DNA of 64,000 nt from Escherichia coli. GTDB lineage: Bacteria; Pseudomonadota; Gammaproteobacteria; Enterobacterales; Enterobacteriaceae. The notes below the pieces were generated by a model. It was not told the origin of the DNA and ran no database searches. It was given only the letters and a program-made list of their open reading frames with translations. The stretch lies in NCBI RefSeq assembly GCF_003790525.1, contig NZ_CP033635.1, one strand, 5' to 3'. This document shows positions 42,082 to 63,889 of the stretch, piece after piece; within the stretch, counting starts at the first letter, position 1, and the number at the start of each line of letters is the position of its first letter. The position numbers were made by a program, and so were the translations under genes.

Positions 42082-42101
42082 GTCGCTCTGTGCGCGCTTT
42101 T

Positions 42102-42210
42102 CCCCTCCCCCTAACCCTCTCCCCAAAGGGGCGAGGGAACCGATCGAGCACGGTGTTAAAATCGGCGCTGGTTTTCTCCCTCTCCCTGTGGGAGAGGGTC
42201 GGGGTGAGGG
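42102..42210. repeat. GC-rich palindromic intergenic repeat, two inverted copies (boxC-like; family name uncertain)
   Basis: CCCCTCCCCCTAACCCTCTCCCCAAAGGGGCGAGGG and its inverted partner CTCCCTCTCCCTGTGGGAGAGGGTCGGGGTGAGGG; same motif recurs at 53408 and 63851. Confidence 0.5.
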
Positions 42211-42256
42211 CATCAGCACGCATATTCATCACATTCACCCATTAACTCACCCAAAC

Positions 42257-44704
42257 ACCATGCCAACACCAACCATTATCAAAACACTCGCCACCCAGCG
42301 CGAAAAACCGTCCGTCAGCGTCATCACGCCAACCTGGAACCGCAGCGCATTCCTGCCGTACCTGCTTTATATGTACCGCTATCAGGACTACCCGGCAGAC
42401 CGCCGCGAACTCATCATCCTCGACGATTCCCCTCAAAGCCATCAACACATCATCGACCGCCTGACCAATGGCACACCGGAAGCCTTCAACATCCGCTACA
42501 TCCATCACCCGGAAAAACTGCCGCTGGGCAAAAAACGCAATATGCTCAACGAACTGGCGCGCGGCGAATACATCCTCTGCATGGACGATGACGACTACTA
42601 CCCGGCAGATAAAATCTCTTACACCATCGCTATGATGCAAAAAAACCGGGCGCTCATCTCCGGTTCCGACCAGATCCCCATCTGGTACAGCCACATCAAT
42701 CGCATCTTTCAAAGCCGCAGCTTCGGCCCGCATAACATCCTCAACGGCACCTTTTGCTATCACCGTAACTACCTGAAAAAGCACCGCTACGATGACGATT
42801 GCAATTTAGGCGAAGAGAAAAGTTTCACCGACAATTTCAGCGTTAACCCGCTACAACTGCCCGGCGAGCGCACGATTTTGTGTATCTCGCACAGCCACAA
42901 CACCTTTGATAAAGACTTTATTCTCGGGGCCAGCACGCCAGTAAACGCGACGCTTACGGATATCGTCCGCGATCCGCTGCTCCGCAATGCTTATCTGAGT
43001 CTGCATAACGCCACTCATCATCAGGCGATCCAGTATCAGGCGATCGATCAGATCGTTCTGCTGAATCTGGATAAACGCCCGGATCGCTTACAGCAGATCC
43101 GTGAAGAACTCACATTGCTGCATATTCCTCCTGAGAAGATCACCCGCCTTGCCGCCAGTGAAAATGAAAACGGTCAACGGGGCCGCCAGCAATCACACTT
43201 GCAGGCACTGCGTCTGGCGCAACAACGCGGCTGGCAAAACTACCTGCTGCTGGAAGATGACGCGGTTATTCTCAAACAGGAGAAACATATTCAGGTGCTG
43301 AACGCGCTGCTGGCGAGCCTGGCGAAAATTCCCTGGCAGGTGATGATCCTCGGCGGCGAAATTTCGCAGGGAACGATGCTAAAAAGTTTGCCTGGGCTGG
43401 TGCACGCGCGGGACTGCCGCAAAGTGTGCGCTTATCTGGTGAACCGCCGCTACTACCCGCAGCTGGCGCAGCAGATGAACAACGATGAGCATTCGCTGGA
43501 AGACGGCTGGCAGCCGCTGCTGCGCACCGACAAATGGCTGGCCTGTTACCCGAGCCTTTGTTATCAGCGACCGGGCTTTAGTGATATCGAGAAAAAAGCG
43601 ACTGATAACATTAACCACTACTTCAATAAGTTACCCGTAGCCACCAAGCCATCTACATTACCTATCGCCGATACCATCGGCTTTTTTATGGAAACCTCAT
43701 TCCACTACGCGCTCTACCGCCCAATCATCACCGCCCTGCAGGCGCAGGGGCAGAGCTGTACGCTGGTGATCAATGACCGCGTATTTAAACCATTTCTGGA
43801 TGAAATGCTGGCGACGCTAAAAAGCATCGACGATCCGCAGCTCAAAGGAATGCGCTTATCTGAAATGCAGGCACACGGTCAGCGAGTAAAATGCCTGGTC
43901 AGCCCCTATCACACGCCTGTGCTCAGTGGCCTTTCCCCCCTGAACATTCGCGCCATGTACGGCTTAGCCAAAGAAACGTGGAACCACGCCGACTGGAACC
44001 GTTTTTATCAGCGCATTTTGTGTTACAGCCACTACAGCCAGCGGGCGCTGGCACATTTCGGCAGCGCAATAGTGGTCGGCAACCCGCGCTTCGACGCCTG
44101 GCATAACGCCACGTTCGACCGCGCGTTGCCGGAAAATATCAAACTGGACGAGCGTAAACCCACCGTACTCTACGCCCCAACGTTTGGCGCATTAAGCTCC
44201 CTGCCCCACTGGGCAGAAAAATTGGGGCGCTTAAGCGATGATGTGAACCTGATTTGCAAACTGCACCACGGCACCTGCTCGCGCCCGGAAGAAGCTGCAT
44301 CGCTGGCCCTGGCTCGCAGGCATTTAAAACAGCGCACCGACTCCGCCCGTCACACGCTGGCGCTGCTGGCAAAGGCCGATTACGTGCTGACCGATAACAG
44401 CGGCTTTATTTTCGATGCTATTCACGTTGATAAGCGGGTGATCCTGCTCGACTTTCCGGGCATGGCAACGTTGCTCGACGGTGAGAAAAGTTACTCCACG
44501 CCCGAAAGCGCCGACCAGCGAATCCGCGAAATATTGCCGGTGGCTCATGATGTTGCGGAACTGCGTTATTTGTTGTCAGAGGCGTTTGACTGGGGTGCGG
44601 TGCAGGCGCGGCTTACGAAGATTCGTCATCACTATTGCGATGCGTTTATGGATGGCAAGGCGGGAGAACGGGCAGCGATGGTGATTGTGGAGGCACTAGG
44701 GTAA
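42257..44704 (+). CDS. Multidomain glycosyltransferase: N-terminal GT-A family 2 domain, second GT-like domain, C-terminal TagF/TagB-type CDP-glycerol glycerophosphotransferase-like domain
   Basis: VSVITPTWNR...ILDDSP...CMDDDDYY (GT2 fold with DxD), ILLEDDAVIL in the middle, and C-terminal KPTVLYAPTFGALSS resembling the TagF-family LYAPTxR motif. Start at ATG 42257; the track start lies in the upstream repeat. Confidence 0.7.
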   Translation, partial: TMPTPTIIKTLATQREKPSVSVITPTWNRSAFLPYLLYMYRYQDYPADRRELIILDDSPQSHQHIIDRLTNGTPEAFNIRYIHHPEKLPLGKKRNMLNELARGEYILCMDDDDYYPADKISYTIAMMQKNRALISGSDQIPIWYSHINRIFQSRSFGPHNILNGTFCYHRNYLKKHRYDDDCNLGEEKSFTDNFSVNPLQLPGERTILCISHSHNTFDKDFILGASTPVNATLTDIVRDPLLRNAYLSLHNATHHQAIQYQAIDQIVLLNLDKRPDRLQQIREELTLLHIPPEKITRLAASENENGQRGRQQSHLQALRLAQQRGWQNYLLLEDDAVILKQEKHIQVLNALLASLAKIPWQVMILGGEISQGTMLKSLPGLVHARDCRKVCAYLVNRRYYPQLAQQMNNDEHSLEDGWQPLLRTDKWLACYPSLCYQRPGFSDIEKKATDNINHYFNKLPVATKPSTLPIADTIGFFMETSFHYALYRPIITALQAQGQSCTLVINDRVFKPFLDEMLATLKSIDDPQLKGMRLSEMQAHGQRVKCLVSPYHTPVLSGLSPLNIRAMYGLAKETWNHADWNRFYQRILCYSHYSQRALAHFGSAIVVGNPRFDAWHNATFDRALPENIKLDERKPTVLYAPTFGALSSLPHWAEKLGRLSDDVNLICKLHHGTCSRPEEAASLALARRHLKQRTDSARHTLALLAKADYVLTDNSGFIFDAIHVDKRVILLDFPGMATLLDGEKSYSTPESADQRIREILPVAHDVAELRYLLSEAFDWGAVQARLTKIRHHYCDAFMDGKAGERAAMVIVEALG

Positions 44705-44715
44705 AACGCGCAAGT

Positions 44716-44813
44716 GCCTGATGCGCTTCGCTTATCAGGCCTACGCGACCTTGCAATGTATTGAATTTGTAAGGATTTGTAGGCCGGTTAAGGCGTTTAC
44801 GCCGCATCCGGAA
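44716..44813. repeat. BIME (two REP palindromes in opposite orientation)
   Basis: GCCTGATGCGCTTCGCTTATCAGGCCTAC ... GTAGGCCGGTTAAGGCGTTTACGCCGCATCCGGAA. Confidence 0.6.
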
Positions 44814-45029
44814 CGAACAACGCACTTAACTACCCTCTGATTTCAAACTCATCGCTTTATGACTGGTGAATCGGTAAAAGTCGTAGATTGTGGGGGAGCG
44901 ATCTTTATGAATTCTGAAAAAACCTGAATCTTGCTAAACATATTGCTTATCATAAATATAGGTTACACACTATAACAATTATTGCGTAATTTAACATTTT
45001 GTTAAAATTGATAGGGCATAAACGATAAC

Positions 45030-45851
45030 ATGACTTATGATAAAAAAGTAACTTCCGGTACAACAAGCCAGAAACAAAACAACATTGTCACTCAAAAAAT
45101 ATCTCGCCCAAAGGAATTGTTTCTATTATTTTGGGTTGATGAGTCCGGTGATAGCCGACGTTCTATTTTTGAAGAAGCATGTCTGACGCGTTATTTCAAC
45201 ATCCTTTACTCCCCCGAGTATAAAAAAGAAACACAGATAGTTTACCATTTATCAATTAACACATTTAATCAAATCAAAGAAATATTAGAAATCTTTATAA
45301 ACAAGAATGGAGGTATAACCAAAGCAAAAGTTAAAGAAGTCAGTTTATTCTCACATGGGGGGCCAATTCATGGTCCTACAACCTCAGACTCTGTAAATAC
45401 ACCTTCCGTGCCTAAATACCCACAACAAATGGACATAATCGGAGGATGGGATTCAATTGATTTTAACTGGTCAAATAACGCTATGTTTGTTATGTATGGT
45501 TGTCGCACTAGTTATGCAAGTGATGATTCAGGACAAGGTTTTGCCAGTAAATTATCCCTATTAGATAATTTTAAGGACGTTAATGTCTGGGGACAAACAG
45601 AAAGTACTTATCCATCTTATTTCCCAGATATTAGGACAACTTCGATTATGAGGTCAATAAATATAGGTTGGTCTTTTTCACCAACATACATGGTTGCCAG
45701 TTCTGAAGGTCAAGGATGGGATGCCTTATTTCCGGATGATAAAAATCCACTAAAGTCTCTCCCTATGCAGTGTTATAATAATGGGAAATTGATTTTAACC
45801 TGCGATCAAAGCAGTTTTAATGATCACCGGAAGAATAAATCAAATGATTAG
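45030..45851 (+). CDS. Hypothetical protein, AT-rich insert inside Flag-2
   Basis: 273-aa ORF, markedly more AT-rich than neighbours; candidate His (SLFSHGGPIHG) and Cys (VMYGCRTSY) motifs noted but not assignable. Confidence 0.5.
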   Translation: MTYDKKVTSGTTSQKQNNIVTQKISRPKELFLLFWVDESGDSRRSIFEEACLTRYFNILYSPEYKKETQIVYHLSINTFNQIKEILEIFINKNGGITKAKVKEVSLFSHGGPIHGPTTSDSVNTPSVPKYPQQMDIIGGWDSIDFNWSNNAMFVMYGCRTSYASDDSGQGFASKLSLLDNFKDVNVWGQTESTYPSYFPDIRTTSIMRSINIGWSFSPTYMVASSEGQGWDALFPDDKNPLKSLPMQCYNNGKLILTCDQSSFNDHRKNKSND

Positions 45852-46383
45852 TATTATATTGAGAAGCTTGATTCTATTATTCATGATAATAGTGTATCCA
45901 GATTATAATAAAAACCTACCTGCCTTTGAAGTATATGGGGAAAATGACATACTTAAGGATATGGTTATTAATATGAAAACTTATAGTAACCATAGTAAGA
46001 AAAACTCTTCCCCAACAACTATAGTGCAAACCATCCTTTTTAAAGGGAATATACAGCAAGTTTTTGAAAGCAACGATATGGGTGCAGAGAGCTTCTTTTT
46101 TTCTTATAATAACAAGGTTGAAACGCTGGTAACAGACGCTTTCTTTTTGAATAGAAAATTAGACAAACTGCATGATGCAAATATTTTTGAAGTTATAAAG
46201 CATGGGGAAAATATCGTTATTAGATATTACAAATGCAAAATTGAATATATGAAAAAAGAAAAATCTATCGAAATAGAGATATCAACAAACAAAAACAGTT
46301 ATTTTAGCAAAAATGGAATAAAACAAAAAGACACAAATAAATATAACACATATTTCTTCAATTACTTTGAGGCTCAAAAATAA
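45820..46383 (+). CDS. Hypothetical protein with N-terminal hydrophobic segment, AT-rich insert inside Flag-2
   Basis: 187-aa ORF overlapping the end of the previous gene; N-terminus MISIILRSLILLFMIIVYP looks like a signal or membrane anchor. Start uncertain. Confidence 0.45.
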   Translation: MITGRINQMISIILRSLILLFMIIVYPDYNKNLPAFEVYGENDILKDMVINMKTYSNHSKKNSSPTTIVQTILFKGNIQQVFESNDMGAESFFFSYNNKVETLVTDAFFLNRKLDKLHDANIFEVIKHGENIVIRYYKCKIEYMKKEKSIEIEISTNKNSYFSKNGIKQKDTNKYNTYFFNYFEAQK

Positions 46384-46394
46384 ATTTTATTTTG

Positions 46395-46790
46395 TCATGC
46401 TTTCCCCCTAATCACCTCAATAATCCCCGTCGTCGACACCGACGGCGTGCGGGGGAAATACACTACCTCACAAATATACGCGAAGCTGTCAAACTTTCCT
46501 GCCCAGTCATCGCCCATCACTAAAATATCCGCACTGTACCCCCGCAGATACTCCGCTTTCTGCTCCAGCGACTCTTCCAGAAATACGCCATCCACGCACG
46601 CCAGCCCGGCGATGATCGCCATGCGGTCATCCTGAGGGTAAACCGGTGCCCTGCCCTTTTTGGCGATGTTCAGGGCATCGGACGATACGCCGACCAGCAG
46701 CCGTTCGCCCAGCGTGCGGGCGCGTTGTAAAAGGCGCAGATGACCGACATGAAACACATCGAAGGTGCCGAAGGTGATGACCGTTTTCAT
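46395..46790 (-). CDS. Cytidylyltransferase (glycerol-3-phosphate cytidylyltransferase TagD-like)
   Basis: 131 aa; MKTVITFGTFDVFHVGHLRLLQRAR carries the HxGH nucleotidyltransferase motif; start is 3 nt after the lfiJ stop. Confidence 0.8.
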   Translation of the reverse strand: MKTVITFGTFDVFHVGHLRLLQRARTLGERLLVGVSSDALNIAKKGRAPVYPQDDRMAIIAGLACVDGVFLEESLEQKAEYLRGYSADILVMGDDWAGKFDSFAYICEVVYFPRTPSVSTTGIIEVIRGKA

Positions 46791-46792
46791 GG

Positions 46793-47227
46793 CTACTCCG
46801 CTAACTTATGCCGCAGCCAGCACTGGACGGCGATGTCATCCACCGCTTTTTGCGCTTTCGCCGTGGCACTTTCTTGCTGCTCGCGGCGTTTGTCGTCCAA
46901 CGTCAGGGCCACCACTTTCTCTTCGCACGCCGCCGCCGTCAGGTTTTTCTGCATTCGCGTGGCTTTGATGTTAGCCAGCGTTTTTTCCTGCTCCTGCCAG
47001 GCGATCACCTTGCGCAAGGTGCCTTTGTAGTCGCTGACGTTTTTCAGCGATTCCACCGACGCTGCCGCGCCCGCAGATGTTTTCTCCACCAGGTAGCCTA
47101 ATGCTTTGATATTGTTGTCATAACCCGCACAAATCTGTTTTTGCTTTGCCAGCTCGACGGTTTTGTCTTTGACCGATTTATCCCGCAGGCGCTGCAACTG
47201 CGCCAGGGTGTCGATGATTTGTCGCAT
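46793..47227 (-). CDS. lfiJ: Flagellar export protein (FliJ homolog)
   Basis: 144-aa coiled-coil protein directly after the FliI homolog. Confidence 0.75.
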   Translation of the reverse strand: MRQIIDTLAQLQRLRDKSVKDKTVELAKQKQICAGYDNNIKALGYLVEKTSAGAAASVESLKNVSDYKGTLRKVIAWQEQEKTLANIKATRMQKNLTAAACEEKVVALTLDDKRREQQESATAKAQKAVDDIAVQCWLRHKLAE

Positions 47228-47229
47228 GG

Positions 47230-48567
47230 TTACTGTTCTGCCTTTTTGACGCCAGGAAAGAGAATTTGCAGGCGGCTTTGCACCAGTTCGAGGGAGGCGG
47301 GTTCGCGCATCTCCTGGCGCAAAAAACGCTCGATAGCCGGGAACATTTTCACCGCTTTGTCGACGCTGGCGTCCGCGCCTGCCACATAACCGCCGAGTGG
47401 GATCAGCGGTTTGATCTCCATGTAGGCGGCGTAGTTTTGCTTTAACGCGCGGGCGGATTGCTGATGTTCCAGGCTGGTGACCTGGTTCATGCAGCGGCTG
47501 ATCGACTGGCCGATATCAATGGCCGGATAATGCCCCGCTTCCGCCAGTTTGCGGGTTAATACGATATGCCCGTCCAGCACCGCACGGGCGCAGTCGACAA
47601 TCGGATCTTGCTGGTCGTCGCCTTCCGCCAGCACGGTGTAGATGGCAGTCATCGATCCCGCGCTTTCGCTGTTGCCTGCGCTTTCGACCAGTTTGGGGAT
47701 CATGCCGAATGCCGACGGCGGATAGCCTTTGGTGGCGGGTGGTTCGCCAAGCGAGAGCGCAATTTCACGCTGCGCCATCGCATAGCGGGTCAGGGAATCC
47801 ACCAGCAGTAAAACGTGATGCCCGCGGTCGCGAAACCAGGCGGCGACGGAGTGGCACAGTTCGGTGGCTTTCAGGCGCATCAGCGGCGATTCATCGGCGG
47901 GCGCGACGACGACGATAGACTTCGCCAGCCCGTCCGCGCCCAGTGAGTGGTCGATAAACTCTTTCACTTCGCGCCCGCGTTCGCCAATCAGCCCGACCAC
48001 CACGATGTCGGCTTTGGTCTGGCGGGTGATCATCCCCAGCAGCACGCTTTTCCCGACGCCGCTGCCCGCCATCAGCCCGACACGCTGGCCTTTGCCGATG
48101 GTCAGCAGGCCGTTGATCGCTTTCACGCCCACGTCCAGCGGTTCGTCCACCGAACGGCGGGTTAAGGGATTAACCGACGGCGGCAGCGGCGGCAGAAGGT
48201 CGTTGCCGTTCAGGCGGCCTTTGCCATCCAGCGGTTCGCCGAGGCCGTTAACCACGCGGCCTAACCAGCTTTCGCCAATCAGGATGTCGTGGGCTTTTTC
48301 TTCCGGGAAGACGCGCGCCCCCGCCATCAGGCCGACCGGCTGTTTAAACGGCATTAAGTAAGTGATATCGCGATTAAAGCCTACGGCCTGCGCGTCGATA
48401 AGCGTGTGGTTGGCGCTTTCGATGCGACACAGCTGCCCGGTCATTAGCGGGCAGCCGACGCTCTCCAGCAGGATGCCATTAAGGCGCACCAGCCGCCCGG
48501 CGACGCGGGCCAGCGGGATCGACTCCAGCGAGCGCAGGGCGTTATCGAAAGCGGAAAAATCACTCAC
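47230..48567 (-). CDS. lfiI: Flagellum-specific ATPase (FliI homolog)
   Basis: 445 aa with Walker A (GLMAGSGVGKS) and F1/T3SS-ATPase-like sequence. Confidence 0.95.
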   Translation of the reverse strand: MSDFSAFDNALRSLESIPLARVAGRLVRLNGILLESVGCPLMTGQLCRIESANHTLIDAQAVGFNRDITYLMPFKQPVGLMAGARVFPEEKAHDILIGESWLGRVVNGLGEPLDGKGRLNGNDLLPPLPPSVNPLTRRSVDEPLDVGVKAINGLLTIGKGQRVGLMAGSGVGKSVLLGMITRQTKADIVVVGLIGERGREVKEFIDHSLGADGLAKSIVVVAPADESPLMRLKATELCHSVAAWFRDRGHHVLLLVDSLTRYAMAQREIALSLGEPPATKGYPPSAFGMIPKLVESAGNSESAGSMTAIYTVLAEGDDQQDPIVDCARAVLDGHIVLTRKLAEAGHYPAIDIGQSISRCMNQVTSLEHQQSARALKQNYAAYMEIKPLIPLGGYVAGADASVDKAVKMFPAIERFLRQEMREPASLELVQSRLQILFPGVKKAEQ

Positions 48568-49270
48568 CCTGTGACTCCGGCGTTAGCGTCTCTTGTAGCG
48601 CGGTCATGCATTGTTCCAGGCGGTGCTCGCAGCCGATATCCAGTTCGGATTTATCGGTGATCACCCGGCATTCACCCGGCGGCAGATCCGGCGAAGGCGT
48701 CAGCCCCCATTCGCTGACCTTTTCCGGCACCGCGTCGCGCAAGCGGTTAAATTCTTCCGTACTTAGCATCACTTGGAGGGTCTCCGGCATTGCCGGGAAG
48801 GCCGCCAGTGCCTCTTCCACCAGCGCCAGCAACTGCGTCGGTTGCAGCGCCAGTTCGCAGCGGATCACCTGGCGGGTGACTTTTTCCACCAGTTGCAGCA
48901 AATCTTCCCGCTGTTTGCGTTCGATATGGGCGAGAAAGTCGTTCACTTTTCCGCTGATGGCTTCCAGCGGCTGTGCCGCGTCAACAAACTGTTTGCGCCC
49001 TTCCTGCTGCCCGGCGAGGCTGCCTTCGGTGTAGCCCTGGCGTCGCCCCTCGGCAAAACCTTGTTGATGACCTTCGCTAAAGCCCTGCTCCTGGCCTTCG
49101 GTCATTCCCTGAGCAAACCCTTTTTGCAGCCCTTCCTGAAAACCGTCCATCAACTGGCGCTGGTAATCGGCGGCGCTAATGCTGGCGGTGAGCGGTTCTC
49201 CGGTCACCGCACGCTGGCGCGGCGGAAAACGGTGCAGGCGATAGCGCCCGCGCAGTGTTTCAATGGTCAT
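48560..49270 (-). CDS. lfiH: Flagellar assembly protein (FliH homolog)
   Basis: 236 aa with Gly/Glu/Gln-rich repeats and a FliH-like C-terminal domain; sits between fliG and fliI homologs. Confidence 0.8.
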   Translation of the reverse strand: MTIETLRGRYRLHRFPPRQRAVTGEPLTASISAADYQRQLMDGFQEGLQKGFAQGMTEGQEQGFSEGHQQGFAEGRRQGYTEGSLAGQQEGRKQFVDAAQPLEAISGKVNDFLAHIERKQREDLLQLVEKVTRQVIRCELALQPTQLLALVEEALAAFPAMPETLQVMLSTEEFNRLRDAVPEKVSEWGLTPSPDLPPGECRVITDKSELDIGCEHRLEQCMTALQETLTPESQGE

Positions 49271-49272
49271 GG

Positions 49273-51907: not shown

Positions 51908-51911
51908 AGGG

Positions 51912-52253: not shown

Positions 52254-52267
52254 TTTTAACTTCCGGG

Positions 52268-53254
52268 TCAGGAGAAAACTTCGATACCGTGCTTGCGCAT
52301 GGAGGCCAGTCGATAGCGCAGTGCGCGCGGGGTAATGCCTAACAGGTCAGCGATTTTGCTGCGGTTGCCCTGATATTTACGCATCAGGTCGGCGATATAT
52401 TGATACTGCGCGCTTCGTCCGTGCTGGCCTAAATCGCCGGTTTCGGCAATGTGGACGGCGGGCTGAACAGGCCATTGCAGTTCACTGTGGTCAGCAATAT
52501 CGGTGTCCGGCAGGCCTAATGCATCCGGGTAAATTACGCCGTCGCGATTTAAAATCATTCCCCGCTGAATGGCGTTTTCCAGTTGGCGAACGTTACCGGG
52601 CCAACGGTAATTGAGCAGCGCACGGCGGGTGGATTCGGACAGGGTGATATTTTTCACCAGCACCGTGGAGTATTTTTTAATAAATGACTCTGCCAGCGGA
52701 ATAATATCGTTCAGACGTTCACGCAGCGGCGGCATGGTAATAGGAATCACCGCCAGACGATAATAGAGATCTTCACGAAAACGTCCGGCGGCAACTTCCT
52801 GCTCCAGGTTTTTATTGGTGCAGGCAATCAGGCGAAAATTGAGTTTGATTTGTCGGTTGCTGCCTAATCGCTCAACCTGTTGTTCCTGCAACACGCGTAA
52901 TATTTTGGCCTGTAGCGCCAGCGGCATTTCACCAATTTCATCGAGCAATAAGGAGCCGTTATTTGCCAGTTCCATTTTTCCTGGCACGCTGGCAATTGCG
53001 CCGGTAAATGCGCCTTTGTCGTAGCCAAATAACGTCGATTCCAGCATATTTTCCGGGATCGCCGCGCAGTTCACGCCGATATAGGGCGCATTATCATTTT
53101 CACCAAAGGCTACGGTGTGAATATATTTCGCCACGCACTCTTTCCCCGCGCCGGTTTCGCCCTGAATGAGCACCGGCACGTTAAAGGCGGCGACACGCTT
53201 TGCCAGAGTAAAAGCGTTAATGCTGGAAGCGGCAGTTGCAATAAGTTCAGACAT
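52268..53254 (-). CDS. lafK: Sigma-54-dependent transcriptional activator of lateral flagella (AAA+ domain plus C-terminal HTH, no N-terminal receiver domain)
   Basis: 328 aa; Walker A GETGAGKE at residues ~30-40, GAFTGA sigma-54 contact motif, C-terminal Fis-type HTH (SKIADLLGITPRALRYRLAS). No coding potential upstream for a receiver domain. Confidence 0.9.
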   Translation of the reverse strand: MSELIATAASSINAFTLAKRVAAFNVPVLIQGETGAGKECVAKYIHTVAFGENDNAPYIGVNCAAIPENMLESTLFGYDKGAFTGAIASVPGKMELANNGSLLLDEIGEMPLALQAKILRVLQEQQVERLGSNRQIKLNFRLIACTNKNLEQEVAAGRFREDLYYRLAVIPITMPPLRERLNDIIPLAESFIKKYSTVLVKNITLSESTRRALLNYRWPGNVRQLENAIQRGMILNRDGVIYPDALGLPDTDIADHSELQWPVQPAVHIAETGDLGQHGRSAQYQYIADLMRKYQGNRSKIADLLGITPRALRYRLASMRKHGIEVFS

Positions 53255-53407
53255 AGGGTGAACAATATAAGTAGCGACAATAATCAGGATGTTCTGAAGC
53301 GTATCACCGGCGGGATTAACAAGTTCGAATTAAACGATAATAAAAACATTATTTGATGGTAAACAATTAGTTAGATATTAATACTGTTAATTTGGACATC
53401 TGTGATG

Positions 53408-53446
53408 CCCCCTCACCCTAACCCTCTCCCCGGATGGGGCGAGGGG
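53408..53446. repeat. GC-rich palindromic intergenic repeat (boxC-like), single copy
   Basis: CCCCCTCACCCTAACCCTCTCCCCGGATGGGGCGAGGGG between divergent lafK and lfiM. Confidence 0.4.
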
Positions 53447-53626
53447 ACAGACCGCAGACTGATTGGCGAAAATCACTCCCATTAAGCAATTAATCGATTA
53501 ATTATTTTTTCACCCTATTAATAATTTGCCCCTTTCACTCCCCCTCTATTTAATACCTCACCTTGTGTCACAGCCGGATTTGCGTGCACAGAAACACCCA
53601 TACCATTACAGCAGAGAAAGTAAGCC

Positions 53627-54478
53627 ATGCTGAAGTACAGTAAAACGCCAGGCATCTTTAAATTAGAAGGTAATCGGCTCGGACGCCCCTACCATCGCCT
53701 GCCGACCCTGTTTACGGGGAATTTTGACGTGATTGATTCGCATCTTGGCAGCTACTTTCTCAAAAAGCATCGCAGCAATATCACCTTAAAAAAGATTGGC
53801 TGCGAAATGGATATTATTAATAAAAACGCCGAACTGATGGTTTCCCAGGTCGGGCATCTGGCGTTTGATATTGATCGCTCCTTATTGTTAATGCTGCTGG
53901 GCAATTTTTATGGTCTGGAGTCCTCTCTTGAAGAGGCGAAAGCGCATAACGGGCTGCCGACCAAAACCGAAACTCGTTTAAAAAACCGACTCGCGCTGGA
54001 TATCTGCACGCTGATATTTAATCTGCAAACCTCCGGTATTGCGCTGAAATTAAAACTGGACAGCAGCACGGTGATTACCCACTGGGCGTATCAATTAACC
54101 TTTACCCTTGCGGGCGATGAAGAGAGCAGTTTCCGTATTTTGCTCGACGACGCCCACACCGATTTTATTTTGAATCTGATCCGCCACAGCGAGCACAGTA
54201 AACCGCAGCAGGTGGCGAAATCCGTTAATAAACCGGCCCTGATTAAAGAAATCATCCGCTCCCTGCCGCTGACCCTGAACGTCAAAATCGCCGAGCTATC
54301 GATGAATGTCGCCGATCTGGCGCAGATAAAAGCCGGGGATATTTTACCCATCTCGCTGGGAGAAACGTTCCCGGTGGCGATTGGGCAATCTGAATTATTT
54401 AGCGCCCTGATTGTGGAAGACAAAGACAAACTGTTTTTGTCGGAGCTGGCGGGCAAGAATGAGAATAGCCATGAGTAA
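53627..54478 (+). CDS. lfiM: Flagellar switch protein (FliM homolog)
   Basis: 283 aa with C-terminal SpoA-like segment (LAQIKAGDILPISLGE). Confidence 0.85.
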   Translation: MLKYSKTPGIFKLEGNRLGRPYHRLPTLFTGNFDVIDSHLGSYFLKKHRSNITLKKIGCEMDIINKNAELMVSQVGHLAFDIDRSLLLMLLGNFYGLESSLEEAKAHNGLPTKTETRLKNRLALDICTLIFNLQTSGIALKLKLDSSTVITHWAYQLTFTLAGDEESSFRILLDDAHTDFILNLIRHSEHSKPQQVAKSVNKPALIKEIIRSLPLTLNVKIAELSMNVADLAQIKAGDILPISLGETFPVAIGQSELFSALIVEDKDKLFLSELAGKNENSHE

Positions 54479-55591: not shown

Positions 55592-55593
55592 TT

Positions 55594-55866
55594 ATGTTGA
55601 CCGTAGACGTAGCCGCCGACATTGTCGCCAGTGGCATAAAAGTGGTGATTTTGCTGGTTTCGGTGCTGGTGGTGCCAAGCCTGCTGGTCGGCCTGCTGGT
55701 GAGCGTGTTCCAGGCGGTGACGCAGATTAACGAACAGACCCTGAGCTTTTTGCCGAGGCTGATTGTCACGCTGGTGGTGCTGGGGGTGTGCGGCAAATGG
55801 ATGATTATCCAGTTGCATGATCTCTGCATTCATCTGTTTAGTCAGGCCGCCCTGCTGGTGCATTAA
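55594..55866 (+). CDS. lfiQ: Flagellar export apparatus protein (FliQ homolog)
   Basis: 90-aa two-helix membrane protein, FliQ-like. Confidence 0.9.
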   Translation: MLTVDVAADIVASGIKVVILLVSVLVVPSLLVGLLVSVFQAVTQINEQTLSFLPRLIVTLVVLGVCGKWMIIQLHDLCIHLFSQAALLVH

Positions 55867-55867
55867 G

Positions 55868-56650: not shown

Positions 56651-57779
56651 CAGCAGCGAAGAAAAAACAGAGAAACCCTCGGCGCAAAAGCTGCGTAAAG
56701 CGCGTGAAGAGGGGCAACTGCCGCGCTCGAAGGATATGGGGCTGGCGGCGAGCCTGTTTGCGGCGTTTGTGGTGATCTCCAGCAGCTTCCCGTGGTATGC
56801 CGATTTTGTGCGTGAGAGTTTTATCAGCGTGCATCAGTACGCGCAGGAGATTAATAACCCGGATGTGATCGGCCAGTTTCTGCGCCATCACCTGTTAATT
56901 CTCGGCAAGTTTATTCTTACCTTGCTGCCGATGCCCGCCGCCGCACTGCTCTCCTCGCTGGTGCCTGGCGGCTGGCTGTTTCTGCCGAAAAAAATCCTCC
57001 CTGATTTCAGCAAAATTAGCCCGTTAAAAGGGATTGGGCGACTGTTTTCCAGTGAGCATCTGGCGGAAACGGGAAAGATGACAGTGAAGTCGGTGGTGGT
57101 GCTGGTGATGCTGTGGGTAAGCCTGCGCAATAACTTTGCCGCCTTTCTCGGCCTGCAGGCGCTGCCGTTCAAACTGGCAATTAACGATGGTTTATCGCTC
57201 TACGCCAGCGTGATGCGCAACTTTGTCATCCTGTTTATCTTCTTTGCGCTTATCGACGTGCCGCTGGCGAAAGCCCTGTTTACCAAAGGGCTGAAGATGA
57301 CCAAGCAGGAGCTGAAAGAAGAGTACAAAAATCAGGAAGGCAAGCCGGAAGTGAAGGCGCGCGTGCGACGGCTGCAACGGCAGCTGGCGATGGGGCAAAT
57401 CCGCAAAGTGGTGCCGAAAGCCAACGTGGTGATCACCAACCCGACCCACTACGCCGTGGCGTTGCAGTATGACCAGTCTCGCGCCGCCGCGCCGTTTGTG
57501 GTGGCAAAAGGCACCGATGAAATCGCCCTCTATATTCGCCAGGTCGCCGCTGAGAATCAGGTGGAAGTGGTCGAGTTCCCGCGGCTGGCGCGCTCGGTTT
57601 ACTACACCACGCAGGTGAACCAACAAATTCCGTTTCAGCTTTACCGGGCCATCGCCCACGTTCTGACCTACGTCCTACAAATGAAACACTGGCGCGAGGG
57701 CGCACAGCCGCGCCCGGCCCTGAACAGACATATTTCCATTCCCAAAGAGGTGCTTAAACTGGATGGCGAAAACAACTAA
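56640..57779 (+). CDS. lfhB: Flagellar export apparatus protein (FlhB homolog)
   Basis: 379 aa with the NPTH autocleavage motif (VITNPTHYAVAL). Confidence 0.9.
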   Translation: MADSSSEEKTEKPSAQKLRKAREEGQLPRSKDMGLAASLFAAFVVISSSFPWYADFVRESFISVHQYAQEINNPDVIGQFLRHHLLILGKFILTLLPMPAAALLSSLVPGGWLFLPKKILPDFSKISPLKGIGRLFSSEHLAETGKMTVKSVVVLVMLWVSLRNNFAAFLGLQALPFKLAINDGLSLYASVMRNFVILFIFFALIDVPLAKALFTKGLKMTKQELKEEYKNQEGKPEVKARVRRLQRQLAMGQIRKVVPKANVVITNPTHYAVALQYDQSRAAAPFVVAKGTDEIALYIRQVAAENQVEVVEFPRLARSVYYTTQVNQQIPFQLYRAIAHVLTYVLQMKHWREGAQPRPALNRHISIPKEVLKLDGENN

Positions 57780-59856
57780 ATCGTTCCTCGCGCTGCTGCG
57801 CGGCGGCAATCTCGGCGTGCCGCTGGTAATACTGTGTATTCTGGCGATGGTTATTCTGCCGCTGCCGCCTGCGCTGCTGGATATTCTGTTCACCTTCAAC
57901 ATTGTGCTGGCGGTGATGGTGCTGCTGGTGGCGGTGTCGGCGAAAAGGCCGCTGGAATTCAGCCTGTTCCCGACCATTTTGCTGATCACCACTTTAATGC
58001 GCCTGACGCTCAACGTCGCCTCCACGCGCGTGGTGCTGTTACACGGGCATCTCGGCGCGGGCGCGGCGGGTAAGGTAATTGAGTCGTTTGGTCAGGTGGT
58101 GATTGGCGGCAACTTTGTCGTCGGTTTCGTGGTGTTTATCATCCTGATGATCATCAACTTTATCGTCGTCACCAAAGGGGCCGAGCGTATTTCCGAGGTT
58201 TCTGCCCGCTTTACCCTGGACGCGATGCCCGGTAAACAGATGGCGATTGACGCCGATCTTAACGCCGGATTGATCAACCAGGCGCAGGCACAAACCCGGC
58301 GTAAAGATGTTGCCAGCGAGGCCGATTTCTACGGCGCAATGGACGGGGCATCGAAGTTTGTGCGCGGCGATGCCATCGCCGGGATGATGATTCTGGCGAT
58401 CAACCTGATCGGCGGCGTCTGTATCGGGATCTTCAAATACAACCTGAGCGCCGACGCCGCCTTCCAGCAATATGTGCTGATGACTATCGGCGACGGGCTG
58501 GTGGCGCAGATCCCGTCCCTGCTGCTCTCCACCGCGGCGGCAATTATCGTCACCCGCGTCAGCGACAACGGCGATATCGCCCATGACGTGCGCCACCAGC
58601 TGCTGGCAAGTCCGTCGGTGCTCTACACCGCCACCGGGATCATGTTTGTGCTGGCGGTGGTGCCGGGGATGCCGCATCTGCCATTTTTGCTGTTCAGCGC
58701 CCTGCTTGGCTTTACCGGCTGGCGGATGAGCAAACGCCCGCAGGCGGCGGAGGCGGAGGAGAAAAGCCTCGAAACGCTGACCCGAACCATCACCGAAACC
58801 AGCGAGCAACAGGTCAGTTGGGAAACCATTCCGCTGATCGAGCCCATCAGCTTAAGCCTCGGCTACAAGCTGGTGGCGCTGGTGGACAAAGCGCAGGGGA
58901 ACCCGCTCACCCAGCGGATTCGCGGCGTGCGGCAGGTGATATCCGACGGTAACGGCGTGCTGCTGCCGGAGATCCGTATTCGGGAAAACTTCCGTCTCAA
59001 GCCCAGCCAGTACGCCATTTTCATCAACGGCATTAAGGCTGATGAAGCGGATATTCCGGCGGATAAACTGATGGCCCTGCCCTCCAGCGAAACCTACGGC
59101 GAGATTGACGGCGTACTGGGGAATGACCCGGCATATGGGATGCCGGTCACCTGGATTCAGCCTGCGCAGAAAGCGAAGGCGCTGAATATGGGGTATCAGG
59201 TGATCGACAGCGCCAGCGTGATTGCTACCCATGTAAATAAGATTGTGCGCAGCTATATTCCTGATTTATTTAACTATGACGATATTACGCAGTTGCATAA
59301 TCGTTTGTCGTCGATGGCACCGCGACTGGCGGAAGACTTAAGCGCGGCGCTCAATTACAGCCAGTTGCTGAAAGTGTATCGCGCGCTGCTGACCGAAGGC
59401 GTTTCCCTGCGCGATATCGTCACCATCGCCACCGTGCTGGTCGCCAGTAGTGCGGTGACTAAAGATCATATCCTGCTGGCGGCCGATGTGCGCCTGGCGC
59501 TGCGGCGCAGTATCACCCATCCGTTCGTTCGCAAGCAGGAGCTGACGGTGTATACGCTGAATAATGAGCTGGAAAATCTGCTGACCAACGTGGTGAATCA
59601 GGCGCAACAGGCCGGCAAAGTGATGCTCGACAGCGTGCCGGTGGACCCGAATATGCTTAACCAGTTCCAGAACACGATGCCGCAAGTGAAGGAGCAGATG
59701 AAAGCGGCGGGGAAAGACCCTGTGCTGCTGGTGCCACCGCAGTTGCGCCCTTTGCTGGCGCGCTATGCGAGATTGTTTGCGCCGGGGCTGCATGTGCTGT
59801 CGTATAACGAAGTGCCGGACGAGCTGGAGTTGAAGATTATGGGGGCGTTGATGTAG
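57763..59856 (+). CDS. lfhA: Flagellar export apparatus protein (FlhA homolog), full length
   Basis: 697 aa with N-terminal membrane domain and FlhA cytoplasmic domain. Confidence 0.95.
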   Translation: MAKTTKSFLALLRGGNLGVPLVILCILAMVILPLPPALLDILFTFNIVLAVMVLLVAVSAKRPLEFSLFPTILLITTLMRLTLNVASTRVVLLHGHLGAGAAGKVIESFGQVVIGGNFVVGFVVFIILMIINFIVVTKGAERISEVSARFTLDAMPGKQMAIDADLNAGLINQAQAQTRRKDVASEADFYGAMDGASKFVRGDAIAGMMILAINLIGGVCIGIFKYNLSADAAFQQYVLMTIGDGLVAQIPSLLLSTAAAIIVTRVSDNGDIAHDVRHQLLASPSVLYTATGIMFVLAVVPGMPHLPFLLFSALLGFTGWRMSKRPQAAEAEEKSLETLTRTITETSEQQVSWETIPLIEPISLSLGYKLVALVDKAQGNPLTQRIRGVRQVISDGNGVLLPEIRIRENFRLKPSQYAIFINGIKADEADIPADKLMALPSSETYGEIDGVLGNDPAYGMPVTWIQPAQKAKALNMGYQVIDSASVIATHVNKIVRSYIPDLFNYDDITQLHNRLSSMAPRLAEDLSAALNYSQLLKVYRALLTEGVSLRDIVTIATVLVASSAVTKDHILLAADVRLALRRSITHPFVRKQELTVYTLNNELENLLTNVVNQAQQAGKVMLDSVPVDPNMLNQFQNTMPQVKEQMKAAGKDPVLLVPPQLRPLLARYARLFAPGLHVLSYNEVPDELELKIMGALM

Positions 59857-59967
59857 GTATCCGGCATCTGCGCACAACCGCCGGATGCGGCGTGAACGCC
59901 TTATCCGGCCTACCGTTCAGGCACGATTCGTAGGCTAAGCGTAAGCGCATCCGGCATCGGCGCGCAA
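59855..59967. repeat. BIME (three REP palindromes) between lfhA and rayT
   Basis: GTAGGTATCCGGCATCTGCGCACA, CCGGATGCGGCGTGAACGCCTTATCCGGCCTAC, CGTAGGCTAAGCGTAAGCGCATCCGGCATCGG. Confidence 0.6.
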
Positions 59968-60465
59968 TTATACAATGATACGCTCCCCGGCACTAAAATC
60001 CGTTACGTCCCCCGCCCAATCGATGGGATATAACCCCTTCGCGACATCGCGATGAAACGTTGAGAATGGCCAATCACTCACTTGCTTTACCCAGCCATGT
60101 TTTACTGGATTTATATAAATATAATCAACATGATGGCGATAGTCTTTGGTATTGCGGATGGCGTGCTCCCAAAAACGCGGTTGCCAGATATTTTGCAATC
60201 CACAAGCATGGGTGAACTGTTTTTTAATCTCCCGCCAGCGAGAGGAAAAATCATCATCGCTTTCGGGTAATGTCCAGATACAGTGCATATGCTCCGGCAA
60301 AACTACCCAGGCGTTAATTTCAAAAGGTCTGGCTCGCTTAACGTTAATAATGACTTTACGGAGCATCTGGAACTGAGCGGTCAGAAGATGGCTTCGACGA
60401 TTTCGTAGGTTAACCGTGAAAAACCAGGTTCCCCCTTTGATGTAATAACGACGATATTCAGACAT
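59968..60465 (-). CDS. rayT: REP-associated tyrosine transposase (RayT/TnpA-REP)
   Basis: 165-aa translation MSEYRRYYIKGGTWFFTVNLRNRR...VVLPEHMHCIWTLPE... with the HuH motif (PEHMHCIW); flanked by REP elements on both sides. Confidence 0.85.
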   Translation of the reverse strand: MSEYRRYYIKGGTWFFTVNLRNRRSHLLTAQFQMLRKVIINVKRARPFEINAWVVLPEHMHCIWTLPESDDDFSSRWREIKKQFTHACGLQNIWQPRFWEHAIRNTKDYRHHVDYIYINPVKHGWVKQVSDWPFSTFHRDVAKGLYPIDWAGDVTDFSAGERIIV

Positions 60466-60560
60466 GGCGACTCCTTTTTCTCAACGGTAAGAAGAAAAGG
60501 AAAGGTCGGCAATGAGGTGATGGAATAACGGGAAAGCGGCTCGCATAAACGCACAGATTT

Positions 60561-60643
60561 GTAGGCATGATAAGACGCGCCAGCGTCGCATCAGGCATCG
60601 GTGCACAATTGCCGAATCCGGCGTGAACGCCCTCTCCGTCCTA
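60561..60643. repeat. BIME (two REP palindromes) between rayT and yafL
   Basis: GTAGGCATGATAAGACGCGCCAGCGTCGCATCAGGC ... GCCGAATCCGGCGTGAACGCCCTCTCCGTCCTAC. Confidence 0.6.
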
Positions 60644-61390
60644 CAAAATCGTCTCTTCCGTCAAAATCCGCCGCGCGCCTAAAAAATGATCCTGCCAGAA
60701 AGGTTCAGCTAACCGGCTTATCCGAATGGTTTCGCCGGTACGTGGTGACTCGATAAACTGACCGTCTCCCAGATACACCCCCATATGATCGGCTATCTCG
60801 CGGCTGTGAATATGGAAAAACAGCAAATCTCCCCGGCGCAGGTCGTTGTTCGCCACAATCGTTGCCCGATGGTAGTGATACATCTCATTGGCTGTGCGCG
60901 GGAGCTTCGCCTCAAGGATCTTGTTGTAGGCATAAAAAACCAACCCGCTACAGTCGAAGCCTTTATCGGGCCGCGTGCCGCCCCAGACATAAGGCTTGCC
61001 AAGCTGCTGCTCCAGGCGGTGAATCGCCACTTCGGTGATGTTGTGTAGATGGTCGCTGCTTAAGAAATGGTTGTTCTCCGCCAGCGCCTGCCAGCGTCTG
61101 TCACTCGCCTTGAGCGGCGCAGGAAACCATTCTGGATGCTGTTTTATCTGTTCGCGGTTGTGCTGGCGCAGCGCCTTTCTGCTTTCGGCATTGCCTTCCA
61201 CAATATAGCCGGCCTGCTTTTTCAGATGAGTTTGGTACTGTTTTAATAAACGCGCACGGTTTTGCATCCGCTGGCGGGCGGCGTAGCTGAAAGAGATATG
61301 TGATGTGGTGGCGCTGGCAAATGAAGAAAACGGCAAGCAAAGCAACAATAATCCCGACAACACAAAAGAGGGAATCGACGGCAAGGACAT
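60641..61390 (-). CDS. yafL: NlpC/P60-family lipoprotein YafL
   Basis: Lipoprotein signal (…LLLCLPFSSFA) and NlpC/P60 catalytic region (DCSGLVFYAY); start at ATG 61390. Confidence 0.85.
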   Translation of the reverse strand: MSLPSIPSFVLSGLLLLCLPFSSFASATTSHISFSYAARQRMQNRARLLKQYQTHLKKQAGYIVEGNAESRKALRQHNREQIKQHPEWFPAPLKASDRRWQALAENNHFLSSDHLHNITEVAIHRLEQQLGKPYVWGGTRPDKGFDCSGLVFYAYNKILEAKLPRTANEMYHYHRATIVANNDLRRGDLLFFHIHSREIADHMGVYLGDGQFIESPRTGETIRISRLAEPFWQDHFLGARRILTEETIL

Positions 61391-61567
61391 ACTCAATAAT
61401 GGCTGGTCATGCATTGATGTTGCAGTGTATCCCGGCCCGTACCTGAACAAACTTAATAAACCATTATTATAAAATTAATAAATATATTTCAGTTAATTAT
61501 GTAAAAACATCCGTTTATTAAATTACTCATGGATTGTCGCTGTTGCTCATTTGAGCTACAATTCAAG

Positions 61568-61583
61568 CTGAATAAATATACAG
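61568..61583. promoter_or_regulatory. Candidate LexA box upstream of dinJ
   Basis: CTGAATAAATATACAG fits CTG-N10-CAG about 17 nt upstream of the dinJ ATG. Confidence 0.5.
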
Positions 61584-61599
61584 CACAGGAGATATCCCA

Positions 61600-61860
61600 A
61601 TGGCTGCTAACGCGTTTGTTCGCGCCCGAATCGATGAAGATCTGAAGAATCAGGCGGCGGACGTACTGGCCGGGATGGGGCTGACCATCTCTGACCTGGT
61701 TCGCATAACCCTCACAAAGGTCGCGCGTGAAAAGGCATTGCCGTTTGATTTACGCGAGCCTAATCAATTAACTATTCAATCAATCAAAAACAGCGAAGCT
61801 GGCGTTGGTATTCATAAGGCCAAAGACGCCGATGATTTATTTGATAAATTAGGAATTTAA
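61600..61860 (+). CDS. dinJ: Antitoxin DinJ
   Basis: 86-aa translation MAANAFVRARIDEDLKNQAADVLAGMGLTISDLVRITLTKVAREKALPFDL... matches DinJ. Confidence 0.9.
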   Translation: MAANAFVRARIDEDLKNQAADVLAGMGLTISDLVRITLTKVAREKALPFDLREPNQLTIQSIKNSEAGVGIHKAKDADDLFDKLGI

Positions 61861-61862
61861 AT

Positions 61863-62140
61863 ATGATTCAAAGGGATATTGAATACTCGGGACAATTTTC
61901 AAAGGATGTAAAACTTGCACAAAAGCGTCATAAGGATATGAATAAATTGAAATATCTTATGACGCTCTTATCAATAATACTTTACTGCTTCCAGCTGTTT
62001 ATAAAGACCACCCGCTGCAAGGTTCATGGAAAGGTTATCGCGATGCTCATGTCGAACCGGACTGGATCCTGATTTACAAACTTACCGATAAACTTTTACG
62101 ATTTGAGAGAACTGGAACTCACGCGGCGCTATTTGGGTAA
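61863..62140 (+). pseudogene. yafQ: yafQ toxin gene interrupted by a single-base frameshift
   Basis: N-terminus MIQRDIEYSGQFSKDVKLAQKRHKDMNKLKYLMTLL is YafQ. After CTCTTATCAATAAT the frame shifts; the remainder (INNTLLLPAVYKDHPLQGSWKGYRDAHVEPDWILIYKL...AALFG) continues in another frame to TAA at 62138-62140. Span is 278 nt, not a multiple of 3. Confidence 0.6.
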
Positions 62141-62295
62141 AGCCCGCTGCCGATGAAATTTGTAAACCCTGCGCCGACAGGCTTGCGTAAAACTCTTTTG
62201 GTGATAATGTGAGCCTTCCAAATCCAGACTATTCCGATTTGGGATCCATTTTGCCGTCCTGGCGTGTGTAACCGTTTTATCAAGGAATAAGCAGT

Positions 62296-63036
62296 ATGCG
62301 TAAAATCGCATTAATTCTTGCGATGTTGTTGATCCCGTGCGTTTCGTTTGCCGGTTTGCTGGGCAGCAGTAGCTCGACCACGCCAGTGAGCAAAGAGTAT
62401 AAGCAGCAGTTGATGGGATCCCCTGTCTACATCCAGATCTTCAAGGAAGAACGTACGCTCGATCTCTACGTCAAAATGGGCGAGCAATATCAACTGCTCG
62501 ACAGCTATAAAATCTGTAAATATTCCGGCGGCTTAGGGCCAAAACAGCGTCAGGGCGATTTCAAAAGCCCGGAAGGGTTTTATAGCGTCCAGCGTAATCA
62601 GTTAAAACCAGACAGCCGTTACTACAAAGCGATTAATATTGGATTCCCAAACGCCTATGACCGTGCGCATGGTTATGAAGGGAAATACCTGATGATTCAC
62701 GGCGATTGTGTTTCCATCGGCTGCTACGCGATGACCAATCAGGGTATTGATGAGATCTTCCAGTTCGTTACTGGTGCGCTGGTGTTTGGTCAGCCGAGCG
62801 TGCAAGTGAGTATTTACCCGTTCCGTATGACCGACGCCAATATGAAGCGCCATAAATATTCCAACTTTAAGGACTTCTGGGAGCAACTGAAGCCAGGCTA
62901 CGACTACTTTGAGCAAACCCGTAAGCCACCGACCGTTTCTGTGGTCAATGGCCGTTACGTGGTCAGCAAGCCGTTAAGCCACGAAGTTGTGCAGCCACAA
63001 CTGGCATCAAACTACACGCTCCCCGAGGCAAAATAA
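62296..63036 (+). CDS. yafK: L,D-transpeptidase-fold protein YafK
   Basis: Signal peptide [19 protein letters not shown] and YkuD-type catalytic motif ([14 protein letters not shown]). Confidence 0.9.
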
Positions 63037-63774
63037 GCGCCATTCACCTGGCATAATCTTTTGCCAGGTTTCATTGCCCGTCAGCGGCTGTGTCGCAATC
63101 ACCGTGACCACATCATTCGGTGTGGTCTGCGAGCTGAAGTCGATTTCCACATCCTGATCCAGCAACGTTGCCACGCCAAACGGCGCGCGGCGGGTGATCC
63201 AGTGTAAATTAGTCGAGCAATACGCCATTACATAGCGCCCGTCAGAAAGCAGCATGTTGAAAACGCCCTTCTGCCGCAGTTCATCCGCCAGTGAGGCGAT
63301 ATATTTAAACACTGCCGCCATGTTGCCCGGTGTGCGCGGGTAACGCTGCGTTAATTTATGCAGGAGCCAGCAAAAGGCTTTTTCGCTATCGGTTTCACCG
63401 ACCGGGCGGAAGTTGCCGGTTTCCAGTGATTTGTAGCCCGTCAGTTGTCCATTATGGGCATAAGTCCAGTTACGCCCCCATAACTCGCGGGTAAACGGGT
63501 GAGTATTTTCCAGCGCCACCTCGCCCCGATTAGCCTGGCGAATATGAGCCACCACCGAACAGGATTTTATCGGGTAGTCCTGGACAAGTTTGGCGATGGG
63601 GGAATTAAAGCTGGGTTGCGGATCTTTAAATGTGCGACAGCCTTTACCTTCGTAAAAGGTAATGCCCCAGCCATCTTTATGTGGCCCGGTTCCACCACCA
63701 CGCTGTACAAGTCCGGTGAAACTAAAGCAGATATCGGTAGGGACGTTGGCGCTCATCCCGAGCAATTCGCACAT
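63007..63774 (-). CDS. yafJ: Class II glutamine amidotransferase YafJ
   Basis: Translation from [19 protein letters not shown]... (N-terminal nucleophile Cys2), 255 aa. Confidence 0.9.
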
Positions 63775-63850
63775 GGGTAACCTCCACAACAGCGGGAGCG
63801 CATGGCCCCCGGCGAAGATTGATTAAAAAGTACAAAGGTTCAGGCTGTTA

Positions 63851-63886
63851 CCCTCACCCCGGCCCTCTCCCTGAAAGGGAGAAAAG
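63851..63886. repeat. GC-rich palindromic intergenic repeat (boxC-like), single copy
   Basis: CCCTCACCCCGGCCCTCTCCCTGAAAGGGAGAAAAG between yafJ and gmhA. Confidence 0.4.
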
Positions 63887-63889
63887 ACC

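Follow-up and report, generated by a model that had tools for sequence, protein, structure and literature searches.

What is the short GC-rich palindromic repeat that recurs at three intergenic sites in a 64,000-nucleotide (nt) stretch of Escherichia coli DNA (contig NZ_CP033635.1 of assembly GCF_003790525.1; the whole stretch is called the window below), and do its copies do anything for the genes beside them? The window is 100% identical to positions 251042-315041, reverse strand, of E. coli SMS-3-5 (NC_010498.1), which served as the source of annotation. Judged by its sequence, the repeat is BoxC, also called PIT and TMECO, an already known element that is represented here by three canonical copies and one truncated copy. 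We consider it very probable that these are copies of the known BoxC, a non-coding repeat of ~55 to 60 nt, and that they are neutral or selfish passengers of slots made unstable by structure-prone sequence.

Identity of the repeat

The whole window was searched for the half-motif CCCTCACCC-N3-CCCTCTCCC, allowing up to 3 mismatches. Four matches were found, at 42103-42123 (+), 42190-42210 (−), 53410-53430 (+), and 63851-63871 (+). When the window was shuffled 100 times with its dinucleotides preserved, the mean was 0.01 match per shuffle, and 4 or more matches were obtained in 0/100 shuffles. An independent repeat search of the window recovered the same three direct copies as one family and an inverted pair, 42091-42139 and 42174-42222, of 49 nt and 71% complementary. 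An earlier note, made from the letters alone, had described a motif recurring at three sites, paired in inverted orientation at the first and always lying between genes. The coordinates were as described, the inverted pair is real, and all four copies are intergenic in the RefSeq annotation, but the copy at the third site turned out to be degenerate, with a truncated C-rich block. The note had also given GGGGCGAGGG as part of the motif; this applies to the two copies classed below as type A, but the other two carry GGGAGAGGG and GGGAGA.

The element was first named BoxC (Bergler et al. 1992), then PIT, for potential intrastrand triplex (Hoyne et al. 2000), and then TMECO (Holder et al. 2015) (PMC4666352). 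Its published consensus is 5'-CCCTCNCCC N3-6 GGGNGAGGG N3 GGGNGAGGG[GTC-]-3' (Holder et al. 2015, PMC4666352). The same study recognizes subtypes by the second loop, which is TTA in type A and CCG in type B (TCG variants are classed as B in its Table 1), counts 23 TMECO copies in MG1655, and reports that inverted pairs always consist of one A and one B copy, as in all five K-12 pairs (PMC4666352). Scanning the window with a regular expression made from the published pattern gave three exact matches to the full consensus, at 42103-42137 (−), 42178-42210 (+), and 53410-53445 (−). The fourth copy, 63851-63885, fails the pattern in the first block only. In order, the second loops of the four copies are TTA, TCG, TTA, and CCG, which are those of the published type A and type B classes. 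Because the type A (−) and type B (+) copies at site 1 are both exact consensus matches, this site is a classical A+B inverted pair. The earlier guess of a "boxC-like" family was therefore correct: three copies fit the published consensus exactly, one of them is identical to a K-12 copy, and the A+B pairing is as published. At the level of sequence, the identity of the copies as BoxC is established.

When the window copies were aligned with 12 BoxC copies from six K-12 loci, the similarity reached past the core into flanks that are specific to the subtype. The 5' flank of type A is GTGCTCGATCGGT(C/T); type B has GGTTTTCT on its 5' side and CATCAGC(A/G)CGCA on its 3' side. These flanks give a unit of ~54 to 60 nt, and megablast against BoxC copies from unrelated loci gave matches 54, 58, and 60 nt long. 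Both agree with the length of 56 bp that PMC2267715 cites, along with 32 copies in K-12, from earlier publications. With a 66-nt probe covering the site 2 copy, the BoxC unit was detected at a median of 17 places per E. coli genome (range, 2 to 29; 16 in SMS-3-5), nearly all of them chromosomal. The motif is thus dispersed and multi-copy, like BoxC.

In their tripartite core, A and B loops, inverted A+B pairing, and subtype flanks, the window copies are like published BoxC, as they are in intergenic location, copy number per genome, and local variability between strains; nothing essential differs. K-12 lacks the loci themselves (two belong to the Flag-2 island, and the third is between gmhA and yafJ), which is why the published K-12 table does not list them.

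The comparison of the copies with random GC-rich sequence had been set beforehand as the refuting test. Core identity between window copies was 67 to 89%, versus 46 ± 6% between the site 2 core and GC-rich 36-mers of the window. Given these values and the shuffle counts, the copies align with one another better than with random GC-rich sequence.

No bacterial Rfam family covers BoxC, either when the whole window was searched at gathering thresholds or when five K-12 BoxC loci were searched in E-value mode. The only Rfam matches of BoxC were to eukaryotic microRNA hairpin models; they scored far below threshold and are attributable to chance.

The four copies and their variable slots

As BoxC is understood, its core of 33 to 37 nt has one C-rich and two G-rich blocks, of which the first two would pair as a 9-bp hairpin. 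Where the G-rich strand is present as single-stranded DNA, the third block can, according to in vitro work in the literature, lie back along the purine arm, and an intrastrand purine-motif triplex results. For each copy we counted Watson-Crick pairs and allowed triads (G.G-C, A.A-T, and T.A-T, with the third block antiparallel to the purine arm). All nine triads were allowed in three copies and 8/9 in 42103-42137, counts that state compatibility with a triplex only.

Site 1 holds two copies. The first is a type A "mm" element at 42103-42137 (−; extended unit, ~42091-42151) that reads CCCTCGCCC-CTTTG-GGGAGAGGG-TTA-GGGGGAGGG. It has the usual stem mismatch and 8/9 pairs. The one non-canonical triad, by which it differs from canonical BoxC, is due to a G instead of a T in its third block, GGGGGAGGG. 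Its 5' flank, GTGCTCGATCGGT, is common with the type A copy at K-12 hrpB-mrcB, and it gave a 58-nt megablast match to BoxC copies at other loci. The second is a perfect type B element at 42178-42211 (+; extended unit, ~42166-42222), CCCTCTCCC-TGT-GGGAGAGGG-TCG-GGGTGAGGG-C, with 9/9 pairs and 9/9 triads. Including the final C, it is letter-for-letter MG1655 TMECO no. 20 (Table 1 of PMC4666352). Megablast matches at other loci were 54 to 60 nt, and both type B flanks, GGTTTTCT and CATCAGC(A/G)CGCA, are common with a K-12 type B copy. Together the two copies make a composite inverted pair, 42091-42222, whose C-rich blocks face inward across a 40-nt spacer.

The site 2 copy, 53410-53445 (−; extended unit, ~53398-53459), is again type A "mm," CCCTCGCCC-CATCCG-GGGAGAGGG-TTA-GGGTGAGGG; its first loop is 6 nt long, and 8/9 pairs and 9/9 triads were counted. 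The site 3 copy, 63851-63885 (−), is a degenerate type B element with a CCG loop. It matches the half-motif with 0 mismatches, and its second and third blocks are intact, giving 9/9 triads, but the C-rich block is reduced to TTTTCTCCC and only 6/9 pairs can form. The type B copy at K-12 ygfF-gcvP was its best alignment. Alignment with K-12 type B copies suggests that one CCCTCT unit was lost from the first block, and by this evidence the copy is a truncated derivative of BoxC type B.

Sites 1 and 2 lie in the Flag-2 lateral-flagella island (~20572-59856 in the RefSeq annotation), which is complete from lafU/motA to flhA and holds both BoxC and REP elements. At a criterion of ≥80% coverage of a 4-kb probe from the island, Flag-2 was present in 1277 of 5426 complete E. 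coli genomes. Site 1 is a 178-nt gap between a hypothetical gene (41152-42081, +), annotated as lysine-N-methylase in one other genome, and a gene (42260-44704, +) assigned by Pfam to the family-2 glycosyltransferases. Site 2 separates two divergent genes, one for a sigma-54 activator (52268-53254, −) and one that is fliM-like (53627-54478, +). Site 3 is outside the island, between gmhA/lpcA and yafJ; its copy starts 5 nt past the gmhA stop codon (63890-63892).

Qualitatively, all three sites have alternative alleles between strains. The allele with the pair at site 1 was found in 746 genomes (≥80% coverage of a 701-nt probe), and ~1277 genomes carry this part of Flag-2. Strain S3 and others have a ~10% divergent Flag-2 allele with a 46-nt spacer and no BoxC. 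The variable segment at site 2 spans 53376-53497. The 141-nt segment of the SMS type was found in only 57 of the 1284 genomes that matched the region, and in two other strains, JJ1887 and W619, a two-REP BIME occupies the slot between conserved flanks. At site 3 the variable segment is 63825-63888, and the SMS-type segment was found in 329 of 5426 genomes; K-12 has a three-REP BIME there and one O157 strain a single REP, and the junctions of the REP and BoxC alleles coincide within a few nucleotides. The BoxC alleles of the SMS type at sites 2 and 3 are, by these counts, minority alleles; the majority of other E. coli strains have REP/BIME in these two slots. Bachellier and colleagues reportedly described, in 1997, natural isolates in which boxC had inserted at BIME loci.

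A further comparison came from K-12, whose A+B pair at hrpB-mrcB differs from the allele of strain S22EC by a clean presence/absence difference of ~100 nt. The empty site in S22EC has ~13 nt of unrelated sequence. We read this junction by eye (MAFFT put the short allele in the wrong place) and saw no target-site duplication; it was the one filled/empty junction examined. The hrpB stop codon also differs between the two alleles (TAA in K-12, TGA in S22EC). The K-12 ygfF-gcvP locus was tried as a guide to the borders of the element and set aside. Its alternative allele has bglA beside gcvP, and because the alleles differ by this larger rearrangement, the comparison is uninformative about borders. 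Since S3 lacks the pair, REP/BIME occupy sites 2 and 3 in other strains, and the hrpB-mrcB pair is absent from S22EC, BoxC slots are polymorphic for indels and replacements.

BoxC and REP/BIME are alike in being small, GC-rich, intergenic, hairpin-forming repeats that are polymorphic among strains and, at sites 2 and 3, in using the same slots. However, they are unrelated sequence families (REP GCCGGATGCGGCG... versus BoxC CCCTCNCCC...), and REPs have a dedicated transposase, RayT, encoded in the window at 59968-60465, and match Rfam naRNA4, whereas BoxC has no naRNA4 match. An assignment of the three sites to REP (a GCCGGATGCGGCGTGAACGCCTTATCCGGCCTAC-like palindrome) was rejected, as the REP repeats and naRNA4 matches of the window are at other coordinates. 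With MITEs and ERIC (IRU), BoxC shares the character of a dispersed, non-coding intergenic repeat with inverted symmetry and presence/absence polymorphism, but it is much shorter, lacks terminal inverted repeats of the IS type, and showed no target-site duplication at the junction described above.

The REP elements of the window include those around rayT (59968-60465, −), a REP-associated tyrosine transposase gene flanked by REPs at 59859-59913 and 60558-60647 in a REPtron-like layout; the second group also scores as naRNA4. A BIME array at 32604-32951 consists of three tandem units of ~117 nt, the others having 90% and 70% identity to the first, with two naRNA4 (CssrE) matches at 32652-32728 and 32769-32846. 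Further single REPs are at 26859, 35050, 35898-35952, and 44776-44811.

Folding, function, and spread

In each BoxC core, the C block pairs with the first of the G blocks in a short hairpin, with predicted DNA free energies of −6.7 to −9.9 kcal/mol. The pair at site 1 can fold into a long hairpin with energies of −35.8 and −40.6 kcal/mol on the two DNA strands (z scores, −4.3 and −5.8) and of −80.2 kcal/mol as RNA (z = −6.5). As RNA, the site 3 region folded no better than shuffled sequence (z = −0.23). Isolated type A and type B oligonucleotides of the G-rich strand have been shown to fold as triplexes in vitro by circular dichroism and nuclear magnetic resonance (PMC4666352). Scans of the three sites found no sigma-70-like promoter coincident with any copy and no intrinsic terminator (a GC-rich hairpin followed by a T/U run) coincident with any BoxC core. 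A weak terminator-like 7-bp hairpin followed by GTTTTCT lies at 42151-42170, in the spacer of the BoxC pair; it is probably incidental, because the T-run belongs to the type B 5' flank. For PIT elements, PMC4666352 relates that Hoyne and Maher (2002) found neither promoter nor terminator activity and no effect in vivo; from the literature it also summarizes that RNA polymerase was unaffected and that DNA polymerase was blocked in vitro only.

The published survey counted 3610 copies in 262 proteobacterial genomes, with none in Salmonella; E. coli strains had 1 to 29 copies, and their 823 copies fell at 63 loci (PMC4666352). We scanned species-representative genomes with the full TMECO pattern and obtained at least 120 stretches, of which a single Mitsuaria genome supplied almost all; the figures that follow are lower bounds. 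Among the matches listed, the exact three 9-nt blocks occur in very distant bacteria with loops and flanks specific to the lineage. Mitsuaria chitosanitabida (Burkholderiales) has at least 150 copies, at least 128 of them with the first loop GCTTGC and many in inverted pairs. A Methylomirabilota metagenome-assembled genome (MAG), possibly mis-binned, has at least 13, and Ca. Contendobacter has at least 3, whose loops, like those of E. coli, are TTA or CCG. For Enterobacter, a figure of more than 100 copies has been reported. On plasmids the unit was found in 115 of 72,556 records, mostly from Klebsiella, Escherichia, and Enterobacter; from phages it was essentially absent (three partial matches in 50,697 records). 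Two K-12 copies, one between yagA and yagE and the other between xynR and argF (K-12 281900-289500), are inside the cryptic prophage CP4-6, so that in K-12 too BoxC is found in horizontally acquired DNA, parallel to the Flag-2 copies here.

We infer from these observations that the copies are neutral or selfish passengers and that structure-driven instability accounts for their turnover. Their structural propensity is taken over from published work on the same or nearly the same sequences. They would sit in permissive intergenic slots and would not be regulators of the neighboring flagellar or gmhA/yafJ genes. Replication- or recombination-associated events at hairpin- or triplex-prone sequence would cause them to be gained, lost, truncated, or swapped with REP/BIME, and such turnover would make BoxC slots hotspots of polymorphism between strains. 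The internally deleted copy at site 3 is a sign of turnover, and the variable presence of the copies (S3 at site 1; JJ1887 and W619 at site 2) contradicts purifying selection across all Flag-2 carriers. Elevated sequence variability around TMECO loci has been reported (Holder et al., PMC4666352).

Several points weigh against this interpretation. Experiment still leaves room for a function of these particular copies. The site 1 pair is probably within an operon transcript, and its RNA hairpin (−80 kcal/mol) might there alter how the mRNA is processed or how the downstream gene is translated. The triplex was seen neither in duplex DNA nor by in vivo dimethyl sulfate footprinting (PMC4666352). 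Finally, very distant bacteria have the same three 9-nt blocks but different loops and flanks, which is hard to square with neutrality alone and may point to selection acting on the blocks or to a mobilizing or binding protein.

Alternatively, BoxC might be a MITE- or REP-like non-autonomous mobile element, moved by an enzyme that recognizes the hairpin or triplex on single-stranded DNA and uses target sites like those of REP/BIME. The clean presence/absence of the K-12 hrpB-mrcB pair (versus S22EC) and of the site 1 pair (versus S3) is what this would produce, and the slots shared with REP/BIME at sites 2 and 3, with nearly coincident junctions at site 3, agree with it. So do the great differences in copy number among lineages (at least 150 in Mitsuaria, 1 to 29 in E. 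coli, and none in Salmonella, the latter two from PMC4666352) and the copies inside acquired islands, Flag-2 here and CP4-6 in K-12. However, the filled/empty junction that was inspected showed no visible target-site duplication, no transposase is known to be associated with BoxC, and the rayT gene in the window is flanked by REPs, not by BoxC. The unit is also rare on plasmids and essentially absent from phages, and the location of most E. coli copies at conserved loci (PMC4666352) speaks against recent activity. We regard a mobile element of this kind as unlikely.

A bolder version holds that BoxC and REP/BIME are interchangeable occupants of the same slots, placed by shared targeting or replacement, and that BoxC is an orphan mobile element with an undiscovered mobilizing or binding protein. 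If so, the mechanism might be, for example, single-strand transposition directed by hairpins or template switching at stalled forks. The identical blocks in Enterobacterales, Burkholderiales (Mitsuaria), Ca. Contendobacter, and the Methylomirabilota MAG would then be due to a conserved protein that recognizes them and not to common descent of the copies. This we think quite unlikely.

The copies could instead be functional RNA hairpins that stabilize the 3' ends of upstream mRNAs or modulate operon processing or translation, as has been proposed for REP. The pair at site 1 lies between co-oriented genes 178 nt apart and has the strong RNA fold given above; the site 3 copy begins just past the gmhA stop codon; and some members of the REP/BIME family, the alternative occupants of sites 2 and 3, stabilize mRNA. 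Against this, site 2 is a divergent promoter region with no 3' end, the site 3 region has no RNA fold beyond that of shuffled sequence, and no copy is followed by a terminator-like U-tract. Copies occur in both orientations relative to transcription, within the pair as well as in the K-12 table (PMC4666352), and strains that share the flanking genes differ in whether they carry them. The published tests, as PMC4666352 relates them, gave neither terminator nor promoter activity, and BoxC has no Rfam family. We think a role as an RNA element quite unlikely.

That the three sites are unrelated GC-rich sequences alike by chance, for which the low sequence complexity of the motif and nothing else would speak, has a negligible probability and is ruled out by the shuffle counts and core identities, the exact fit to the published consensus, and the subtype-specific flanks common with K-12 copies.

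Other features of the window and what the copies mean

The earlier note had remarked on a spurious reverse-strand open reading frame (ORF) of 108 amino acids (aa) at the first site. The ORF is present at 41912-42238 (−), where it spans, antisense, the 3' end of the upstream gene and the BoxC pair. Pfam gave no match for it, the annotation of NC_010498.1 does not include it, and, as the note supposed, it is most likely spurious and no gene.

At the start of the window, a match to the Hfq-binding small RNA isrC in Rfam (1-90, minus strand, 94 bits) is cut by the window edge and adjoins an IS3 transposase gene, and further inside an integrase gene lies beside tRNA-Thr (8330-8402). These features give that end of the window the look of an island junction. 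Two toxin genes, yafQ of dinJ-yafQ (61863-62140) and yafO of yafN-yafO (~18699-19098), are frameshifted pseudogenes in SMS-3-5, and their antitoxin genes are intact.

In itself the finding matters little, as it re-identifies a repeat family that was described in 1992 and characterized from 2000 to 2015, and for which no function has been demonstrated. It has some practical consequences. BoxC pairs create spurious ORFs, such as the one of 108 aa, and can mislead the choice of start codon for a downstream gene. Truncated derivatives, like the one at gmhA-yafJ, escape strict pattern searches. For strain-level polymorphism in the Flag-2 island and its surroundings, the three slots make good markers. 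The sharing of two of the three slots with REP/BIME and the identity of the blocks across phyla keep alive the old question of how BoxC spreads, and these are the only aspects that might repay systematic follow-up.

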